In this document: one piece after another, positions 1 to 35,387 of the stretch
Numbering within the stretch: position 1 is the first letter of the stretch
Layout of the letters: every line of letters begins with the position of its first letter
IMG/VR virus record: IMGVR_UViG_2740892426_000005
Source of the DNA: a virus
Taxonomy: Duplodnaviria > Heunggongvirae > Uroviricota > Caudoviricetes
Direction: 5' to 3' (one strand)
DNA length: 38,007 nucleotides
Translations under genes and position numbers: made by a program
The notes under the pieces: generated by a model
Told to the model about the DNA's origin: nothing
Databases searched by the model: none
What the model saw: the letters and a program-made list of their open reading frames with translations, nothing else

Positions 1-1053
1 TTACGGGGTAATGCCAACCGCTGCCGCCACTTTGTCGCCACTTGGCAGCGTTGCCAGAGGATTGAAACGGAGCGCCGTTTCCAGATGATCCGGTGCCAGA
101 TGTGCGTAACGCATAGTCATTTTTATATCGTGGTGTCCGAGAATTTTTTGTAAGGCCAGAATGTTTCCACCCGACATCATGAAGTGCGCCGCAAACGTAT
201 GGCGCAGAACGTGTGTGAGTTGACCGCGAGGGAGCACGATAGACGTTTTTTCCATCACGGATAAAAATTGAAAATAGCAGTCTGTGAAGAAATTGAACCC
301 ATCAAGCGCCATGATCTCTTCGTAAAGCTCTTTACTGATAGGGATGCTTCTGTTTTTCTTCCCCTTCGTTCTGACAAAGGTAATTCGGTATTTGGTCACC
401 TGTGAGCGGGTAAGATTTACGGCTTCACGCCAGCGTGCGCCTGTGCTTAAGCATATCTTAACTACCAGTGCCAGAATTGGGTCCTGACGTTTGCAATCAG
501 CCAGCAATTCAACAATCTGCTCATGGGTAAGCCATGCCATCTCTTTTTCTGCGATGGTGAATTTTCGCATGTTCTCCAGTGGGTTCGGATACGACCATTC
601 GCCCAGACGGGATAGTTCGCTAAAAACACTACTTAGATAGCTTTGCTCCAGGTTAATGGTGACCGGGCTTGCTCCTTTCTTCCATTTCTCGCTGAAGTAG
701 ATCTCGCCTGTCAGGCGTTTATCTCGATAGTGGGCAAACATTTTAGAGGTGAGATCGGTTGCAAGAGGATTGCCCAGAGCGTCAACCATCAACAGCAATT
801 TGTCATAGACATGCTGCCCAGCTGTCAGAGATTTACCATGTAGTTTGAACCATAGCTCAACCACGTCTTTCAGTGTTCGACGATCCACTGATTCACCCAG
901 CCAGGGCTTTGCTTCGGTTTCTTCCATCGTGTGGCGCTCAAAAGCCAGTGCTTCGCCTTTGGTGGCGAATTGTTTACGCACACGACGCCCACTTCGTCCG
1001 GCGGGGTAACATTCGCAAAGCCATTTCCCAGTGGTGAGTTTTCGTACTGCCAT
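1..1053 (-). CDS. int: P2/186-type tyrosine integrase (350 aa)
   Basis: C-terminal catalytic region with HxxR and terminal Tyr context (LRHTFAAH...MTMRYAHL). Start placed at ATG 1053 (MAVRKLTTGKW) preceded by GGAGG about 9 nt upstream; the ORF-track extension to 1209 looks non-coding. Stop codon is at window nt 1-3. Confidence 0.85.
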   Translation of the reverse strand: MAVRKLTTGKWLCECYPAGRSGRRVRKQFATKGEALAFERHTMEETEAKPWLGESVDRRTLKDVVELWFKLHGKSLTAGQHVYDKLLLMVDALGNPLATDLTSKMFAHYRDKRLTGEIYFSEKWKKGASPVTINLEQSYLSSVFSELSRLGEWSYPNPLENMRKFTIAEKEMAWLTHEQIVELLADCKRQDPILALVVKICLSTGARWREAVNLTRSQVTKYRITFVRTKGKKNRSIPISKELYEEIMALDGFNFFTDCYFQFLSVMEKTSIVLPRGQLTHVLRHTFAAHFMMSGGNILALQKILGHHDIKMTMRYAHLAPDHLETALRFNPLATLPSGDKVAAAVGITP

Positions 1054-1241
1054 AAAAAATGCCCTCCAGTAGAGAGCATTTTTACTGTATGTATAACCAG
1101 TGTCAATGTATGAAATCCTACGACCATACATCTCACTGAAGCCATAATGAAGTTGGCTATTCTTTTTGCTATGTGAGCATGTAACTTTTGCGGTTAACCT
1201 GCGGCTCATTTTTATTTTAGACGCAGATATAAAAGCAAAAG

Positions 1242-1433
1242 TTATCGTGAGTTTTTAGTACAGATTTTTTTGGATTTACTAATAGTTCCATCATTGCAAA
1301 CAAATTTTCCATCGGAGGTACAGTGAGAGACACCTCCCTTTTTCCCAGAACAAGGATAATTTTTAGCATAGGTAGTTAGTGGGCTTAATAACAAAGAGCA
1401 TGATAAAACCACAAAAAATACTTTACCAAGCAT
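1242..1433 (-). CDS. small secreted cysteine-containing peptide (63-aa precursor, predicted signal peptide)
   Basis: Strong RBS GGGAGG 5 nt upstream of ATG; hydrophobic N-terminus [23 protein letters not shown] then a Lys/Ser-rich part with 4 Cys; AT-rich by eye; lies between cI and int on the same strand. Confidence 0.5.
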
Positions 1434-1448: not shown

Positions 1449-2018
1449 TTATCTAACATATTTAACTGTTAAACTTATAATTTTACCAATTATTTCAATG
1501 TCTTCTATCTTACATTCGAAGGCTCTGTTTCCACCCTCGACGAAGATTCTTCCACCGGGTAAACGAGTAATGTCACGGATCGTTACTTCGCCATCAATAC
1601 TTATTACCCATTTACCATCACGTATGTCATCAAATTCTTTATCACAAATAAATTCAGAATTGTTATCTGTGATGACAAAAGGTTTTTTAAACGTAGAGGG
1701 TAGAAATCCCTTATCAAAAATATAAAAACCGTCTTCACGCAAGGCACCATCAGATAATACATATTTAGCAACTTCCATAGTATTTGTATTACCTGAAGTT
1801 TGCTTTGAACCATGTCCGGTTGTGAGCCAATTAAGCGAGGTGCCCGTTTCAAGGGCGCACTGGATTACCCATTCTGCTGGGAATGAGTCACGCATGTAGC
1901 GTGTGGCGAGTGTACTTTTAGAGATTCCTAAATGATCGCACAACGCCTGTCGAGTCTTGAATCCATAAGCTTCTACCATGCGCTCTATGGCGCCTCGTCC
2001 GCCTTTCTCCAAATTCAT
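1449..2018 (-). CDS. cI: CI-type immunity repressor (189 aa), phage 186 CI-like
   Basis: N-terminal HTH (RQALCDHLGISKSTLATRYMR), length close to 186 CI, position next to int and divergent from apl/cII. Start at ATG 2018 (RBS GGAG) rather than the GTG at 2024. Confidence 0.7.
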   Translation of the reverse strand: MNLEKGGRGAIERMVEAYGFKTRQALCDHLGISKSTLATRYMRDSFPAEWVIQCALETGTSLNWLTTGHGSKQTSGNTNTMEVAKYVLSDGALREDGFYIFDKGFLPSTFKKPFVITDNNSEFICDKEFDDIRDGKWVISIDGEVTIRDITRLPGGRIFVEGGNRAFECKIEDIEIIGKIISLTVKYVR

Positions 2019-2042
2019 GGTCACTCCGAGTGAACTTTTATC

Positions 2043-4198: not shown

Positions 4199-5052
4199 GC
4201 ACCATCCTGAAATGGGCGGGAAATAAAACCGCCATTATGTCCGAACTGAAAAAGCATCTTCCTGCTGGCCCGCGACTGGTTGAACCTTTCGCGGGTTCCT
4301 GTGCAGTGATGATGGAGACGGAGTACCCCAGCTATCTTGTTGCGGATATTAATCCTGATTTAATCAACCTCTATAAAAAGGTTGCTGCTGATTGTGAATC
4401 GTTTATATCTCGCGCCAGAGTTTTATTTGAGATCGCAAACAGGGAGGTGGCTTATTACAACATAAGGCAGGAGTTTAATTACTCAACTGAAATTACTGAT
4501 TTCATGAAAGCGGTATATTTCCTGTATCTCAATCGTCACGGTTACCGTGGTTTATGTCGCTATAACAAGAGCGGGCATTTCAACATTCCCTACGGCAATT
4601 ATAAAAATCCGTATTTCCCTGAAAAAGAAATTCGCGCATTTGCAGAAAAAGCCCAGCGAGCAACGTTTATCTGCGCCAGCTTTGATGAAACGCTGGCGAT
4701 GTTGAAGGCGGGGGATGTGGTGTATTGCGATCCACCGTATGACGGTACGTTTTCCGGCTATCACACTGATGGTTTCACTGAAGATGACCAGTATCACCTA
4801 GCATCCGTTCTTGAACATCGGTCATCAGAAGGACATCCGGTCATTGTTTCTAACAGTGACACATCCCTGATCCGTTCGCTGTATCGCAATTTTACTCACC
4901 ACTATATCAAGGTAAAACGCAGCATCGGTGTGGCAGCTGGCGAGGGTAAATCAGCAACAGAAATCATTGCTGTTTCCGGGCCGCGCTGCTGGGTGGGATT
5001 TGATTATTCGCGTGGCGTGGATAGTTCTGCCGTGTACGGAGTACGTGCATGA
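4195..5052 (+). CDS. dam: Dam-family N6-adenine DNA methyltransferase (285 aa)
   Basis: N-terminal LKWAGNK and FAGSCAV AdoMet motif, catalytic DPPY; start ATG 4195 with GGAGGTG RBS, overlapping the TraR-like stop; stop overlaps gene A start (ATGA). Confidence 0.85.
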
Positions 5053-7463
5053 GCCATGCCGATATGAACAACTGCTGCGGCTTTAACGAGGCTGCCGCAG
5101 CGTTCTCATGGAACAGCCCGAAAAAGGCCATTAACCCTTATCTGGACCCGGCGGAAGTTGCGCCGGTTTCTGCGCTTTCAAACCTGATCACTCTGTACGC
5201 TGCCGATAACGAGCAGGAACAGTTGCGCCGCGAGGCACTGAGTGATCAGGTCTGGGAGCGTTATTTTTTTAATGAATCACGTGATCCTGTCCAGCACGAA
5301 ATGGAGCAGGATAAGCTCATTAGCCGGGCAAAGCTGGCGCATGAGCAGCAGCGTTTTAATCCGGATATGGTCATTCTGGCGGACGTCAACGCCCAGCCTT
5401 CCCATATCAGCAAGCCGCTGATGCAACGTATTGAATACTTCAGCAGCCTGGGCAGGCCAAAGGCTTATTCCCGCTATTTACGTGAGACGATTAAGCCATG
5501 TCTGGAACGACTGGAGCATGTACGCGACAGCCAGCTATCTGCATCTTTTCGTTTTATGGCAAGCCATGTAGGGCTGGACGGCCTGCTGATTCTGCCTGAA
5601 ATGAGTCAGGATCAGGTGAAACGCCTGTCTACCCTTGTCGCTGCGCATATGAGCATGTGCCTTGATGCAGCTTGTGGTGATTTGTATGCCACCGATGACG
5701 TTAAGCCAGAAGAAATCCGCAAGACATGGGAAAAGGTGGCAGCGGAAACCCTGCGTCTGGATGTCATCCCGCCTGCGTTTGAGCAACTCCGTCGGAAAAG
5801 AAACCGCCGTAAACCCGTGCCCTATGAACTCATTCCGGGTTCGCTGGCGCGTATGTTGTGCGCCGACTGGTGGTACCGGAAATTATGGAAAATGCGTTGC
5901 GAATGGCGGGAAGAGCAGTTGCGTGCTGTCTGCCTAGTCAGCAAAAAAGCATCTCCCTATGTCAGCTATGAAGCCGTGATGCATAAACGTGAGCAGCGCC
6001 GCAAGTCACTGGAGTTTTTCCGTTCTCATGAACTGGTGAACGAAGAGGGCGACACGCTGGATATGGAAGACGTGGTAAACGCCAGCAGCAGCAACCCGGC
6101 GCACCGCCGCAATGAGATGATGGCCTGTGTTAAAGGTCTGGAGCTTATCGCGGAAATGCGCGGTGACTGCGCCGTTTTCTACACCATTACCTGTCCGTCA
6201 CGTTTCCATTCCACGCTCAATAACGGCAGACCAAACCCAACCTGGACAAATGCGACGGTAAGACAAAGCAGCGATTATCTGGTCGGCATGTTTGCTGCAT
6301 TTCGTAAGGCGATGCACAAAGCCGGGTTGCGCTGGTATGGCGTGCGGGTGGCTGAGCCGCATCATGACGGTACAGTTCACTGGCACCTGTTGTGTTTTAT
6401 GCGCAAAAAAGACCGCCGCGCCATTACTGCATTGTTGCGTAAGTTTGCCATCCGTGAAGACCGCGAGGAACTGGGTAATAACACTGGTCCACGCTTTAAA
6501 TCTGAGCTGATAAACCCGCGCAAAGGAACGCCGACAAGCTACATCGCGAAATACATCAGTAAGAACATTGACGGGCGTGGTCTGGCTGGCGAGATCAGCA
6601 AGGAAACGGGTAAATCCCTGCGTGATAACGCTGAATACGTTAATGCCTGGGCGTCTCTGCATCGTGTTCAGCAATTCCGCTTCTTTGGTATTCCAGGGCG
6701 TCAGGCTTACCGTGAACTGCGGTTGTTGGCTGGTCAGGCGGCAAGGCAGCAGGGTGACAAAAAAGCAGGTGCGCCGGTACTGGATAACCCGCGCCTTGAT
6801 GCCATCCTGGCTGCTGCTGATGCTGGCTGTTTTGCCACCTACATTATGAGGCAGGGCGGCGTGCTGGTTCCTCGCAAATATCACTTGATCAGAACCGCTT
6901 ATGAAATCAATGAAGAGCCGACCGCCTATGGCGATCACGGTATTCGTATTTATGGCATCTGGTCACCCATTGCAGAAGGCAAGATCTGCACTCATGCAGT
7001 GAAGTGGAAAATGGTTCGTAAAGCCGTTGACGTTCAGGAGGCGGCAGCCGACCAGGGCGCTTGCGCCCCTTGGACTCGTGGCAATAACTGTCCCCTTGCT
7101 GAAAATTTGAACCAACAGGAGAAAGATAAATCAGCTGATGGGGACACCAGAACGGACATTACCCGCATGGATGACAAGGAGTTGCACGATTACTTGCACA
7201 GTATGAGCAAAAAAGAGCGCCGGGAACTGGCTGCAAGGTTACGCCTGGTTAAACCGAAACGGCGTAAAGACTACAAACAGCGAATTACAGACCATCAGCG
7301 ACTGCAGCTCGTCTATGAGCTGAAGTCCAGAGGATTTGATGGTAGCGAGAAAGAGGTCGATTTACTCCTTCGCGGCGGCAGTATTCCGTCAGGAGCAGGC
7401 CTGCGTATCTTCTATCGGAACCAGCGTTTGCAGGAAGATGATAAGTGGCGGAACCTGTATTAA
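5049..7463 (+). CDS. A: replication initiation protein A, rolling-circle nickase (804 aa)
   Basis: P2 gpA-like size and position; HUH-type motif region [10 protein letters not shown]; translationally coupled to dam. Confidence 0.9.
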
Positions 7464-7532: not shown

Positions 7533-7561
7533 TTTACATCAGTAATATTATTATATACTGT
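7533..7561 (+). promoter_or_regulatory. candidate SOS promoter (-35 TTTACA, -10 TACTGT) overlapped by the LexA box
   Basis: Hexamers read directly; the -10 overlaps the CTGT half of the LexA box. Confidence 0.45.
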
Positions 7562-7575
7562 AAATATAAACAGTG
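7556..7575 (+). promoter_or_regulatory. LexA operator (SOS box) TACTGTAAATATAAACAGTG
   Basis: Perfect CTGT-N8-ACAG with AT-rich spacer, about 40 nt upstream of the ORF at 7616. Confidence 0.7.
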
Positions 7576-7615
7576 GTTATGTATACAGTATTGATTTGGT
7601 GTCATAGGAGGAAAG

Positions 7616-7804
7616 ATGCAGGACTATTTTTTGGAGTCTTTGAAGCTCCAGCGCATTGATTTTTTTCTTAAGCTTGTAGCGGCTAGTGAGTGTAGTGATG
7701 AAGAGAAGGGGCTGGCTCTGCAGTGGGTTTCTGAACTGACAGATGAACTCATGGCAAAAATCAGAACCCACGAATACAACCGCTCAATGGATGTCATCAG
7801 CTGA
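7616..7804 (+). CDS. small SOS-controlled protein (62 aa), possible Tum-like antirepressor module
   Basis: AGGAGG RBS 5 nt upstream of ATG; directly downstream of the LexA box; 186 places its LexA-controlled tum operon at this position. Function is inferred by position only. Confidence 0.45.
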   Translation: MQDYFLESLKLQRIDFFLKLVAASECSDEEKGLALQWVSELTDELMAKIRTHEYNRSMDVIS

Positions 7805-7814
7805 GGTGACTTTT

Positions 7815-8048
7815 ATGCGCATTGAAATAATGATCGATAAAGAGCAGAAGATTAGCCAGTCTACACTGGACGCCCTTGAATCCGAGCTTTACCGCAATCT
7901 GCGCCCCCTGTATCCCAAAACGGTAATCCGTATCCGTAAAGGTAGCTCTAACGGTGTGGAACTGACCGGACTGCAACCGGACGAAGAAAGAAAACAAGTG
8001 ATGAAAATTATGCAGAAGGTGTGGGAAGACGACAGCTGGCTGCATTAA
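7815..8048 (+). CDS. dinI: DinI-family protein (77 aa)
   Basis: MRIEIMIDKEQ... start and ...MQKVWEDDSWLH C-terminus resemble DinI (MRIEV... and acidic W-containing C-terminus); GAGGTGA RBS overlapping the upstream stop. Confidence 0.7.
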   Translation: MRIEIMIDKEQKISQSTLDALESELYRNLRPLYPKTVIRIRKGSSNGVELTGLQPDEERKQVMKIMQKVWEDDSWLH

Positions 8049-8492
8049 GAAATGTTGCCCCCAGGAGGATTCATTCTAATGGGGGCTAGTTTGGGCAACG
8101 AGTGAAACGAGGCGTAAGGTGGGTAATCATTTTGATAAGTGATCGCCCACTTTGTGCCAAAAGCGGACATCGCAGATATGACAATATGTTAGTCAACCGC
8201 GATTAGATCAGTCAGTTGGAGATGGGGGGAAGTTACAAAAACTTGTCGTCCGCCATCTCCGACTACGGGTATTCTTAACTGTACATGCTCTTTCAATCGA
8301 TGATTTTTGAGTAAGTGACTAACCTATTGTTTTGATAGTAATTAAACGTATAAACGTGCGGAGTTAATTTGAAAGTTATGTGTCTATGTTTGACAAGCAA
8401 AATTTTAAAGATTGGTTTTATCCACAGGTAATTTATGCTATTAATAGCCTCAAGCCCTGTAATTATTTTTATTTAAATGGATAAATTTGAAA

Positions 8493-10613
8493 ATGAGTAC
8501 ATATCATAATGATCAGCCAATACTAGGTGGTCAAAATGACCCCGATTTATTAAACAGGCTCGATTTTGCAAATCACTTGGCAAATATTCTACTATTAAAT
8601 CACAATGATGATTGCCTTACTGTATCTATAGAGGCAGAGTGGGGATATGGTAAAACGTCAGTGATAAATCTTATAAAAGGTGCTTTGAATGAAAAGGAGT
8701 TCTTACCAATAATAATAGAATATAATCCATGGCTGGCCGGTCAACCTGAATCCTTGATTCAGGATTTTTTATTACAGTTCTCTTCACAACTAAATATTAA
8801 AGACAATTCAAAAGCTGCTTTGGAAGCTTCAAAAGAATTAATTGCATACTCCAATCTCTTCAGTGTAGCAAAACTTATTCCAGGGACAGAACCTTGGGCA
8901 TCTATCATAGAAAAAGTCCTCTCTAATTTTGGGAGTGCTACTAAAAAGATTGCTGAATTAAAAAAACTGGATCTTTTAGGTAGAAAAAAACAAGTAGAGA
9001 AGGCAATAAAAAAAATAAAAAATCCTATTGTGGTAATAATTGATGATATTGATCGATTGACTCCTACAGAAACTTTTCAAGTTTTACGATTGGTTAAAGC
9101 TGTTGCAGATTTCTCAGGAACTTCTTTTTTACTTGCATTTGATCCTAATTATTTGATTTCTGTGCTTGATAAAAATAATATCGTCAATTCTTCGGAGTAT
9201 CTTAATAAAATTGTTCAACTTCGAGTCCCACTTCCTGTAATCTCAGAAAGGGGTATGAATGAACTTGCAAATGCAGAACTGGAAAAGATAGCTAATAAAT
9301 CTTTAACTGACAGATTCGAAAGTGATCAAGAAAGACTAAGCTGGATTTATCATAATTATTTTAAAAAGCTAATTAAGAATCCGAGAGAGTTAAAAAGATT
9401 TTTTAACCATTTGAGATTCGTTTTAGAGCAAATTGAAGGGCAGGTATGTTTTTCTGATCTCTTTGCTTTATCTCTGGTCGCCACTAAATCGAGTTTGGTA
9501 TACGAGCATATTAAAAGCACACCAGAGGCATATATAGGGAAGAGATTCACTAATGATGGCCTTTTGATGGATAAACCTCAAGATATTGTGGATAGATTTA
9601 GTGATGAGCGAAATAAGAAACTGAGTAATTTTTCTGATCAAGAGCGTTCAGTGATGCAGGAACTCTTAGGAGATATTTTCCCACTTCTACAGTCAAGCGG
9701 GTATTCTCATTATGGGGTTTCTGATCCCGATACAGCAGGAAGGGTTTCTGCACCACAAAGGCTTCATATTGCGTTTCATTATAAAACTCCAGCAGGGTAT
9801 ATTTCTGATCATGATATTATCAGTTTCATTAATGGAGATGTTAAAAGAAACGAATTTCTAAGAGATGTGCTCTCGCAAAATGCAGAAGAAAGATTTTTTG
9901 AAATGATGAATAATTATTCGAGTTATTGTAAGGATAATAGTTTTGAAATATTAACGTGTATTTATGATACTTTTCTGTTTTCTCAAGAATTGAAATCCTC
10001 ATTGGAAAGAAACTATGGTTTTTTGACAAAAGATCTTTATAGAAGGATGAATTGGCTCACTAATAAGGTAATATCTGAAAGTGATGATAAATATGGGTTG
10101 ATAAAGGGGGTTGTAGGTAGGCATGAGAATGCGCCACTTGGTGCAGACGTATTATGCCAAGCTCGTAAACAGATTCAAAATGGATGGAATGACAAAATAT
10201 GGGTTAGTATTGAAGAATTGGCTGAACTTGAAGGTATCTTTCAACAGGTGGCTATTAAAGTTTTAAGTGATAAAATATATTTTGATTATCATCTTGAATC
10301 TCATATATTTTTCGAATTAAAGAGAGTTTCATCTCAATTTACATCAGAGTTTATTGCTTCTGTATTATCAAGTGATGGCCTGATTAGGATGTGTGAGATT
10401 ATTGGTGAAACAGGTAGTGATTCAACAAATGGCCCTTATTTTAAGTTTGATGAAATTTACTTCGGGGAAATACTTGATGTGAATGAACTTCGAAATAAAG
10501 CGAAAAATTTAGATTTTTCAATTTATCCCACACGCATTCAAGCTGTACTTAAGAGTATTCTGGATGGACAAAAATATTATTTGAGAGATGCAACTGTTGG
10601 TGAAGATTGGTAA
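8493..10613 (+). CDS. KAP-family P-loop NTPase (706 aa), candidate accessory/defence gene
   Basis: Walker A in KAP context (EAEWGYGKTS), Walker B (VVIIDDIDR), long helical C-terminal region; AT-rich by eye. Start at ATG 8493; the ORF-track start at 8487 is a TTG. Confidence 0.7.
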   Translation: MSTYHNDQPILGGQNDPDLLNRLDFANHLANILLLNHNDDCLTVSIEAEWGYGKTSVINLIKGALNEKEFLPIIIEYNPWLAGQPESLIQDFLLQFSSQLNIKDNSKAALEASKELIAYSNLFSVAKLIPGTEPWASIIEKVLSNFGSATKKIAELKKLDLLGRKKQVEKAIKKIKNPIVVIIDDIDRLTPTETFQVLRLVKAVADFSGTSFLLAFDPNYLISVLDKNNIVNSSEYLNKIVQLRVPLPVISERGMNELANAELEKIANKSLTDRFESDQERLSWIYHNYFKKLIKNPRELKRFFNHLRFVLEQIEGQVCFSDLFALSLVATKSSLVYEHIKSTPEAYIGKRFTNDGLLMDKPQDIVDRFSDERNKKLSNFSDQERSVMQELLGDIFPLLQSSGYSHYGVSDPDTAGRVSAPQRLHIAFHYKTPAGYISDHDIISFINGDVKRNEFLRDVLSQNAEERFFEMMNNYSSYCKDNSFEILTCIYDTFLFSQELKSSLERNYGFLTKDLYRRMNWLTNKVISESDDKYGLIKGVVGRHENAPLGADVLCQARKQIQNGWNDKIWVSIEELAELEGIFQQVAIKVLSDKIYFDYHLESHIFFELKRVSSQFTSEFIASVLSSDGLIRMCEIIGETGSDSTNGPYFKFDEIYFGEILDVNELRNKAKNLDFSIYPTRIQAVLKSILDGQKYYLRDATVGEDW

Positions 10614-11269: not shown

Positions 11270-12286
11270 TTGTTGAAAGCTATTCTGAGATATCATTATG
11301 ATGAAGTCGATTACAATACTCATTTTGGAGGGGAGTATTACCCGAGTTTTCTATTGGAAGATGATTTTATTTTCACCAAGGATATACAGGAGCATGATGA
11401 ATCTTTTGGGGAACTCGATAGCGAATTGTGGGATATGGCATTTGATAGTGAGGGAATAAATATTTATGCAGGCTATGGATCTGATGGTCTATATAATACG
11501 CCATATATGTCTATCAGAAATGCACATCAGCCATTTTTAGATTCTCTGTCAAAACAGCTTTCAGAAAAGAATTACCATGATTTTGAAGGTGAGCTAAGAA
11601 GTATTATAAAAGGTTATGGTGATATTTTTTCGAAGATAATAGAAGGAAGTTCTGTGGTATATAGAGCCAGAGTTGGGACTGCTGGCTATAAAACAGCACT
11701 TAGAGGATTTAGCCGTGAAGGAAAGAAAATATTTGTTCCATTTAAAGATAAGGAAATAGGAGCCGTGCCACCACTAAAGGCTACTGCTGGCAGGGCTAAT
11801 AGAGCAGGCGTTTCTTACCTTTATTGTGCTACAGATAGTTATACTGCAATTGCGGAAGTTCGACCTCATCCAACAGATGTGGTTTCAATTGGTAAATTTA
11901 GAGTTGCAAAAGCATTAAAGGTATTCGATTTTTCTTATCCTAATTTTTTAGAGTTTATTGAGAGTGATGAAAGTTTATTATCCATGATACCATATGCAAA
12001 GATGGCAGGTATTTTTAATACTGCAACTCCACCTTCCTTAGAAGGAAGATATAGTGTGTCCCAACTAATATCTGATTGTATAAGGAAAGAGGGGTATGAT
12101 GGTATACAATTTTCAAGTACAGTTGGTAAAGGTAAGAACTTGGTTGTTTTTAATCCTTCATGTATGGAATTTATAGATGGTTCATCAAAAGTAATAGAAA
12201 TTGACAAGGTTCAGTATATTTACGAGGAAAAGCAGGTTGTTGGTATGAATGATCAATGGGAGATTTATTACGATGAAGTTGAATAA
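11270..12286 (+). CDS. RES-domain protein with about 165-aa N-terminal extension (338 aa as called); candidate NAD-targeting toxin/abortive-infection effector
   Basis: RES signature residues in context: GRANRAGVSYLYCATDSYTAIAEV (Arg, Glu) and GYDGIQFSSTVGKGKNLVVF (Ser). The called start is TTG with a weak RBS; the frame is open from 11177; the first in-frame ATG is at 11435. AT-rich by eye. Confidence 0.6.
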   Translation: MLKAILRYHYDEVDYNTHFGGEYYPSFLLEDDFIFTKDIQEHDESFGELDSELWDMAFDSEGINIYAGYGSDGLYNTPYMSIRNAHQPFLDSLSKQLSEKNYHDFEGELRSIIKGYGDIFSKIIEGSSVVYRARVGTAGYKTALRGFSREGKKIFVPFKDKEIGAVPPLKATAGRANRAGVSYLYCATDSYTAIAEVRPHPTDVVSIGKFRVAKALKVFDFSYPNFLEFIESDESLLSMIPYAKMAGIFNTATPPSLEGRYSVSQLISDCIRKEGYDGIQFSSTVGKGKNLVVFNPSCMEFIDGSSKVIEIDKVQYIYEEKQVVGMNDQWEIYYDEVE

Positions 12287-35152: not shown

Positions 35153-35230
35153 CGCTGCCGCCATTTTGTCGCCATCGTTAAAAAACAGTGCTTCTAACAT
35201 CATGATTTTAAACAGCTTAAATTTCAGGCA

Positions 35231-35276
35231 ACAAAAAACCCATCAACCTTGAACCGAAATGGCGGGGTTGATGGGC
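35231..35276 (-). terminator. rho-independent terminator-like hairpin (CCCATCAACC/GGTTGATGGG + T-run on minus strand)
   Basis: 10-bp stem followed by TTTTTTG on the minus strand, downstream of ybjL; lies within the prophage/host junction interval. Confidence 0.5.
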
Positions 35277-35387
35277 TCCACAAAATGGGGACATCAAAGA
35301 AAAGCAGTGGCACTAATTAAGACTGATGCCCTGCGGAAAAGTTCTGCGGTTGTGCAAAAAAATTTCATTTTCAGGGCAACTTCAGTT

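Follow-up and report, generated by a model that had tools for sequence, protein, structure and literature searches.

Phage 186's Tum protein binds the CI repressor and blocks its binding to the operator (Shearwin et al. 1998, as cited in PMC3121763); its gene is annotated as 'expression repressed by LexA; inhibits CI DNA binding'. In Fels-2 and PSP3, tum is split in two by a stop codon, as reported by Lemire et al. (PMC3121763). The DNA described here is a stretch of 38,007 nucleotides (IMG/VR virus record IMGVR_UViG_2740892426_000005), called the window throughout. At positions 7533–8048 it contains a module of two small genes, which we consider with high confidence to be the LexA-controlled SOS induction operon, tumA-tumB, of a 186/Fels-2-type prophage. 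The initial annotation had placed an SOS induction module at the position of 186 tum, and this agrees with the layout of 186, PsP3 and Fels-2 and with the block of induction by a gene deletion and by lexA(Ind-) in the prophage DuoHS. The module is already known, in the same two-gene layout in Fels-2 and PsP3 and in fused form in 186, since the same small gene has been deleted in the 97%-identical Escherichia coli HS prophage, with loss of induction.

The Phollow study (PMC12055606; preprint PMC11195241) worked with DuoHS, a prophage of E. coli HS whose DNA is about 97% identical to the window over the stretch from int to tumB. DuoHS has the same CI, and its TumA and TumB differ from ours by one residue each. 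The primers for its tum deletion, NHR24 and NHR28, join ...ATAGGAGGAAAGATG to TGAGGTGACTTTTATGCGCATTG, corresponding to positions 7604–7618 and 7802–7824 of the window. The deletion removes exactly the 62-residue open reading frame (ORF), from start to stop codon, and leaves the DinI-like gene untouched. From the primer match, the 'tum' deleted in DuoHS is the orthologue of the ORF at 7616–7804. After mitomycin C, neither the tum-deleted nor the lexA(Ind-) lysogens lysed or formed viral foci (PMC12055606, PMC11195241), and the host SOS reporter was responsive in the tum-deleted strain (PMC12055606). In Salmonella TA100, which carries Fels-2, the mutagen MX raised expression of STM2727 5.5- to 14.8-fold, and STM2726–STM2728 were scored as a single operon (PMC2225428). 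To this, our analysis adds the sequence features of the module in the window, their conservation and their homologies; by analogy with the near-identical modules of these studies, tumA and a cleavable LexA should be needed for induction here as well, and the transcript should be SOS-induced. The features of the module are as follows.

7533–7538, plus strand: -35 hexamer TTTACA of a p95-like promoter, 17 nt upstream of TACTGT; corresponds to the annotated p95 -35 of 186.
7556–7561, plus strand: candidate -10 hexamer TACTGT, coinciding with bases 1–6 of LexA box 1; identical to the annotated p95 -10 of 186.
7556–7575, unstranded: LexA box 1, TACTGTAAATATAAACAGTG, with a perfect CTGT-N8-ACAG at 7558–7573; covers the -10 hexamer.
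7571–7590, unstranded: LexA box 2, CAGTGGTTATGTATACAGTA, sharing 5 bases with box 1; third in the window by position weight matrix (PWM), with 15.3 bits.
7606–7611, plus strand: ribosome-binding site AGGAGG of tumA, 4 nt ahead of the ATG at 7616.
7616–7804, plus strand: tumA-like gene, 62 amino acids, predicted antirepressor, from its ORF, PHROG 698 and the Tum/TumA cross-matches.
7793–7810, plus strand: small hairpin that takes in the stop codon of tumA and the ribosome-binding site of tumB, called by a terminator-like scan.
7815–8048, plus strand: tumB-like gene, 77 amino acids, DinI family; Pfam DinI (PF06183), E = 1e-22, profile positions 1–63 of 63.
8057–8086, plus strand: GC-rich hairpin after tumB, a possible weak terminator, with a 7-bp outer stem GCCCCCA/UGGGGGC.

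Gene A and the 62-residue ORF are separated by 152 nt, in which both the promoter and the LexA boxes lie. As initially proposed, a perfect LexA box lies over the -10 hexamer and ends 40 nt upstream of the ATG at 7616, from which the ORF with its consensus ribosome-binding site is read. The motif CTGT-N8-ACAG occurs only once in the window; in shuffled sequences it is expected 0.36 times per window and about 0.0014 times in a 152-nt gap. In the PWM check suggested with the initial annotation, box 1 is the top-scoring 20-mer of the window, with 23.3 bits (median of the training sites, 20.9), on a rough matrix trained on E. coli sites. In an alignment of nine homologous promoters, spacers and flanks vary but the LexA box is conserved, as are the -35 hexamer and the spacing: the -35 is TTCCCA in PsP3 and otherwise TT(T/C)ACA, and its distance to TACTGT is 17–18 nt. 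By analogy with p95 of 186, TACTGT at 7556–7561 would be the -10 hexamer.

The second box is kept in six promoters of the Fels-2 type (the window, Fels-2, SEN8, Klebsiella phi4.1, Yersinia MLG42 and E. coli HS) and is not present in the aligned promoters of 186, PsP3 and ESSI-2. A plasmid search with the 53-nt operator stretch led to the sequences that immediately precede the genes for colicin N and pesticin. These, AACTGTATATAAAACCAGTGGTTATGTGTACAGTATT and TACTGTACATAAAAACAGTGGTTTTATGTACAGTATT, have the same layout as the operator of the window, and the spacing of the two boxes matches (CTGT-N8-xCAGTGGTTATGTGTACAGTATT in colicin N and pesticin, CTGT-N8-ACAGTGGTTATGTATACAGTATT in the window). 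The double box drives a prophage antirepressor gene in the window, and toxin genes in the colicin and pesticin systems. A pair of LexA dimers binds overlapping SOS boxes of the colicin type, and repression by them is very tight (PMC2994835). The sequence of the operator suggests that it is a colicin-type double overlapping SOS box, with putative occupancy of both boxes by LexA, and such an operator would silence the antirepressor until the SOS response is strong.

The gene downstream of this operator directly follows replication gene A behind a LexA-boxed promoter, the position characteristic of Tum and TumA. Its 62-residue product matches the profiles PHROG 698 (E = 4e-38), 8554 (E = 2e-8) and 1993 (E = 2e-3); the amino-terminus of 186 Tum matches the same three over the same residues 7–44 (1993, E = 2e-23; 8554, E = 3e-12; 698, E = 6e-6). 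When a profile of 15 sequences of this type is aligned by hhalign with a profile of 186 Tum (residues 1–69) and PsP3 TumA, columns 5–43 align to columns 5–43 without gaps (E = 6.7e-5). The motif common to the 62-residue protein and Tum/TumA is a hydrophobic helix, then a conserved cysteine, then (L/I)A(L/I)xW/L(V/I)xE(L/I). In the AlphaFold2 model, the protein is a two-helix hairpin (helices 2–23 and 28–61) with the cysteine in the turn and a predicted local distance difference test score of 91. A sequence search of the PDB gave no match, and a Foldseek search of the model against BFVD gave none with E < 0.5, the two-helix hairpin being a non-discriminating fold. The ratio of non-synonymous to synonymous substitution rates (dN/dS) of tumA is 0.04–0.12, at dS up to about 1 or more, indicative of strong purifying selection. 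The profile matches support the 62-residue protein being a remote, yet detectable, homologue of the amino-terminus of 186 Tum, that is, of the part that is not DinI-like. The initial suggestion of a short antirepressor-like factor gains from this profile link, from the presence of a 186-type CI and from the phenotype of the DuoHS tum deletion.

Tum-related genes bear varied names in public records. Nearly all entries for the 62-residue gene call it 'hypothetical protein' or, wrongly, 'levan regulatory protein', and the RefSeq name of full-length 186 Tum is 'RecA filament binding protein DinI'.

The second gene had been assigned to the DinI family, after an overlap of stop codon and ribosome-binding site, and this assignment is sound. 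The TGA of tumA (7802–7804) overlaps GAGGTGA (7803–7809), the ribosome-binding site of tumB, and TumB can be aligned over its full length with E. coli DinI (PDB entry 1GHH; residues 1–75 against 1–77, E = 2.5e-6), including the acidic carboxy-terminal helix and the conserved tryptophan. It is 77% identical to PsP3 TumB and, in the comparison with 186 Tum that had been proposed, 41% identical to the carboxy-terminal half. Its dN/dS of 0.03–0.10 again indicates strong purifying selection. From its homology to DinI, TumB may bind or modulate RecA filaments. The junction hairpin (7793–7810) pairs the last codons of tumA with the Shine-Dalgarno sequence of tumB. Its stem is shared with HS and Fels-2; Klebsiella phi4.1 has a stem of differing sequence at the same position, and among the compared relatives the stem is unclear in SEN8 and PsP3. 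It is probably a translational-coupling element. The hairpin after tumB (8057–8086) has a z-score of only -1.46 against shuffled sequence, which is not significant, and its U-tract is poor.

The presumed target of TumA is encoded near the left end of the window.

1449–2024, minus strand: 186-type CI immunity repressor; Pfam Phage_CI_repr and Phage_CI_C, as in 186 CI.

This protein is 32% identical to 186 CI (E = 7e-38), and its Peptidase_S24 score stays below threshold; the family matches support its belonging to the 186-type class, predicted not to cleave itself. Phages with a TumA 98–100% identical to that of the window have CI proteins only 40–57% identical to the CI of the window. When the CI proteins are aligned, their amino-terminal DNA-binding (helix-turn-helix) domains are 68–78% identical among partners of this type of TumA, against 41% for 186, while the carboxy-terminal domains are 25–42% identical in all of them. 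The type of TumA thus appears to track the amino-terminal domain of CI in this small sample of related phages, which fits TumA contacting that domain. As a separate observation, an amino-terminal domain of CI that is more conserved than the carboxy-terminal one is unusual if immunity specificity sits in the DNA-binding domain.

The initial annotation had also raised the possibility of a single ancestral Tum-like gene split by a frameshift. The frame overlap on which it was based is real: the DinI frame is open back to an ATG at 7743, giving a 101-residue ORF that overlaps tumA by about 60 nt, and this overlap is also present in Fels-2. If a recent frameshift had broken a 186-like tum, the module would be a decaying pseudogene or work by halves, and the summed length of the two proteins (62 and 77 residues), close to that of the 146-residue 186 Tum and co-linear with it, would agree with such an event, as would the open frame overlapping the end of the first ORF. 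We nevertheless judge it very improbable. The split is kept across phages of Escherichia, Salmonella, Klebsiella and Yersinia, each cistron has its own ribosome-binding site, dN/dS is 0.03–0.12 over both cistrons at dS up to about 1, and loss of the first cistron alone abolishes induction of DuoHS. In addition, phages of the ESSI-2 type have the small gene without a following DinI gene. SEN8, MLG42 and PsP3 lack the extension to 7743, and a Klebsiella relative has a shorter one, which makes it best regarded as incidental; the 101-residue ORF was accordingly rejected as the true DinI-like gene. The distance between the two start codons is 199 nt in the window and Fels-2, 200 in SEN8 and Klebsiella phi4.1, 201 in Yersinia MLG42 and 186 in PsP3. 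This variable frame relation, together with purifying selection on both genes, points to a stable operon of two cistrons and leaves a fresh or disabling split unsupported. Between the fused form of 186 and the split form we assign no ancestral state, and either may be ancestral. The same overlap of about 60 nt in the window and Fels-2, and the single frame with a stop codon between the genes in PsP3 and MLG42, might be taken to favour a programmed +1 frameshift or stop read-through near 7743–7804, yielding a fused TumA-TumB as the active antirepressor. This is hardly credible, however, on a comparison of the start offsets, to which the search for a slippery motif was confined: no one recoding mechanism could be conserved across offsets of 199, 200, 201 and 186 nt, and tumB has its own Shine-Dalgarno sequence and ATG, its homologues beginning at the same methionine as E. 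coli DinI.

A further alternative concerns the function of the operon rather than its structure. It might be SOS-induced and yet serve mainly as cargo of benefit to the host, its DinI-like protein modulating the host's SOS response, with TumA not acting directly on CI. DinI homologues are indeed found in many unrelated prophages, for example Gifsy-2 and PY54, identical TumA proteins occur beside CI proteins only 40–57% identical to ours, and binding of CI by this variant of TumA is argued from related proteins. Against this, deletion of the small ORF blocks induction while the host SOS reporter behaves normally, the region of 186 Tum to which the small protein is homologous lies outside the DinI-like half, and the type of TumA follows the amino-terminal domain of CI (68–78% identity, compared with 41% for 186). 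We therefore regard a main role in host SOS modulation as improbable, and retain the tumA-tumB induction operon as the explanation of the module.

Several points weigh against the latter. The -10 hexamer is weak, with 3 of 6 consensus matches, and a scan for consensus promoters and terminators called only the hairpin between tumA and tumB and not the p95-like promoter; the miss is explained by the -10 being TACTGT, as in the annotated p95 of 186. The likeness of the 62-residue protein to Tum and TumA is seen at profile level only: the hhalign probability is just 64%, and pairwise BLASTP against PsP3 TumA and 186 Tum gave no alignment, which, with the profiles positive, makes the homology to the Tum amino-terminus a remote one. 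The DuoHS deletion shows that tumB is insufficient for induction, and any role of the DinI-like protein in these phages is putative. For the exact sequence of the window, LexA binding, the transcription start and the contact between TumA and CI are all inferred.

In the tumA-tumB operon as we picture it, LexA bound to the double operator (7556–7590) in the uninduced lysogen would cover the -10 hexamer and the start of the p95-equivalent promoter and keep it shut. Upon DNA damage, activated RecA would bring about self-cleavage of LexA and the promoter would fire. A single transcript would then give TumA (62 residues, a helical hairpin) and TumB (77 residues), the latter probably by translational coupling. 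TumA would bind the 186-type, presumably non-self-cleaving CI and block its binding to the operator, upon which the early lytic promoter would open and the prophage would excise and replicate. TumB would most likely act on RecA filaments, tuning the strength or duration of the SOS signal. The contact of TumA with CI, the role of TumB, LexA on both boxes and the coupling of translation are all modelled on the biochemistry of 186 Tum and on DinI.

As stated, this finding holds no new biology. Its practical value is in annotation, where the 62-residue gene can be recognised as the antirepressor deciding whether the prophage is inducible.

A LexA-like box is also present in front of int, where three elements were noted.

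1054–1106, minus strand: promoter-like site immediately before the probable start codon of int (ATG at 1053), with TTGACA (1106–1101), a 17-nt spacer and AAAAAT.
1083–1102, minus strand: strong LexA-like box, CACTGGTTATACATACAGTA, in the spacer of the putative int promoter; second in the window by PWM, with 23.2 bits.
After the putative int promoter: terminator-like hairpin, AAAAATGCTCTCTACTGGAGGGCATTTTTT, of -14.5 kcal/mol, which includes the int ribosome-binding site.

This arrangement is also found in E. coli HS, Klebsiella phage 4LV2017 and phage 813R9, all of which have cargo between cI and int. It is absent in SEN8 and RE2010, in which int abuts cI. Judged from its sequence, the box suggests SOS-controlled expression of int; the hairpin should stop read-through from cI, and excision would then fall under direct control by LexA. 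In the window, an ORF of 63 codons (1242–1433, minus strand) lies between cI and int; its product has a signal-peptide-like amino-terminus and several cysteines, is shared with E. coli HS and has no match in Pfam.

The double SOS operator, the tracking of the CI amino-terminal domain by TumA and the LexA-like box before int go beyond the initial annotation, and no description of these three features was found in the literature searched. They might act together: a high-threshold, colicin-type operator would make tumA a late SOS gene, LexA would control int and thereby excision, and TumA would recognise the conserved amino-terminal domain of CI. We offer this combination tentatively and on balance doubt it. 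If true, one TumA allele could induce co-resident prophages with CI proteins just 40–57% identical overall.

The window carries a 186/Fels-2-type prophage of the P2 family (Peduoviridae), SOS-inducible and with an intact induction switch. In addition to CI (1449–2024, minus strand), its early region contains, in this order, the following genes.

1–1209, minus strand: int, preceding CI.
2144–2365: apl/cox, following CI.
2392–2907: cII, followed by a dam methylase gene.
5049–7463: gene A, with Pfam Phage_GPA (E = 2e-127), directly upstream of the module.

The initial placing of the module downstream of gene A is thus correct. The 637 bases around the module are present at a coverage of at least 80% in 54 phage records, and the module occurs in 1125 of 5426 complete E. 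coli genomes (about 21%). The slot between tumB and the portal gene is variable, with two cargo genes in the window and other genes in E. coli HS and Fels-2. The first cargo gene (8487–10613) encodes a KAP-family P-loop NTPase matching PifA (PADLOC, E = 1e-64; Pfam KAP_NTPase, E = 2e-46), and the second (11270–12286) a 338-residue RES-domain protein (Pfam, E = 2e-18); both are probably anti-phage or toxin cargo. At the other end, the gene for the host small RNA rybB was located at 35230–35308 (minus strand; Rfam, 105 bits), which places the window's right end in host chromosome past the prophage.

A large protein search showed no fused forms of Tum among the 120 matches listed, all of them close relatives at least 81% identical, and a literature search on TumA/TumB gave unrelated papers only. 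Among the described systems, the Gifsy prophages are similar in principle: a small antirepressor under LexA control is co-transcribed with a DinI homologue, and the target repressor is not cleaved (PMC3121763). However, they are lambdoid phages in which the dinI homologue comes first and the antirepressor gene (gfoA, gftA) second, and the families of antirepressor and repressor are unrelated to those of the window. A tumA-like gene that lies behind one LexA box and is not followed by a DinI-like gene was observed in ESSI2_ev015 (positions 701–913 of the record) and in Cronobacter phage ESSI-2 (about 680–925). These genes are 41–49% identical to that of the window, and the one in ESSI-2 is unannotated.

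Phage 186 has its tum gene at the same position, with a LexA box over the TACTGT -10 of p95 (-35 TTCACA), and a CI of the same type. Where the window has two genes behind a double box, however, 186 has a single SOS box and one 146-residue fusion of both domains with internal starts; it also has orf97 next to tum, and no such gene is found there in the window. PsP3 is closer, with two cistrons after gene A behind a LexA box and a TumB 77% identical to ours. Its tumA (60 residues) is annotated as 'similar to 5' end 186 tum; UV induction of prophage' and its tumB as 'similar to dinI and 3' end of 186 tum'. It differs in having a TumA that is similar at profile level only, a single SOS box, and genes that are in the same frame, 3 nt apart. 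In Fels-2, STM2728 (62 residues) is followed by the DinI-family gene STM2726.1/STM2727, annotated as similar to PsP3 TumB, in a region of 97% DNA identity to the window. Each of its two Tum proteins shows 98% identity to that of the window and the double SOS box is shared, while the cargo downstream is different, and the CI of RE2010, of the same genus as Fels-2, is only about 41% identical to that of the window. DuoHS differs from the window in a few base changes in box 2 and in the cargo after tumB, and shares with it the double-box operator.

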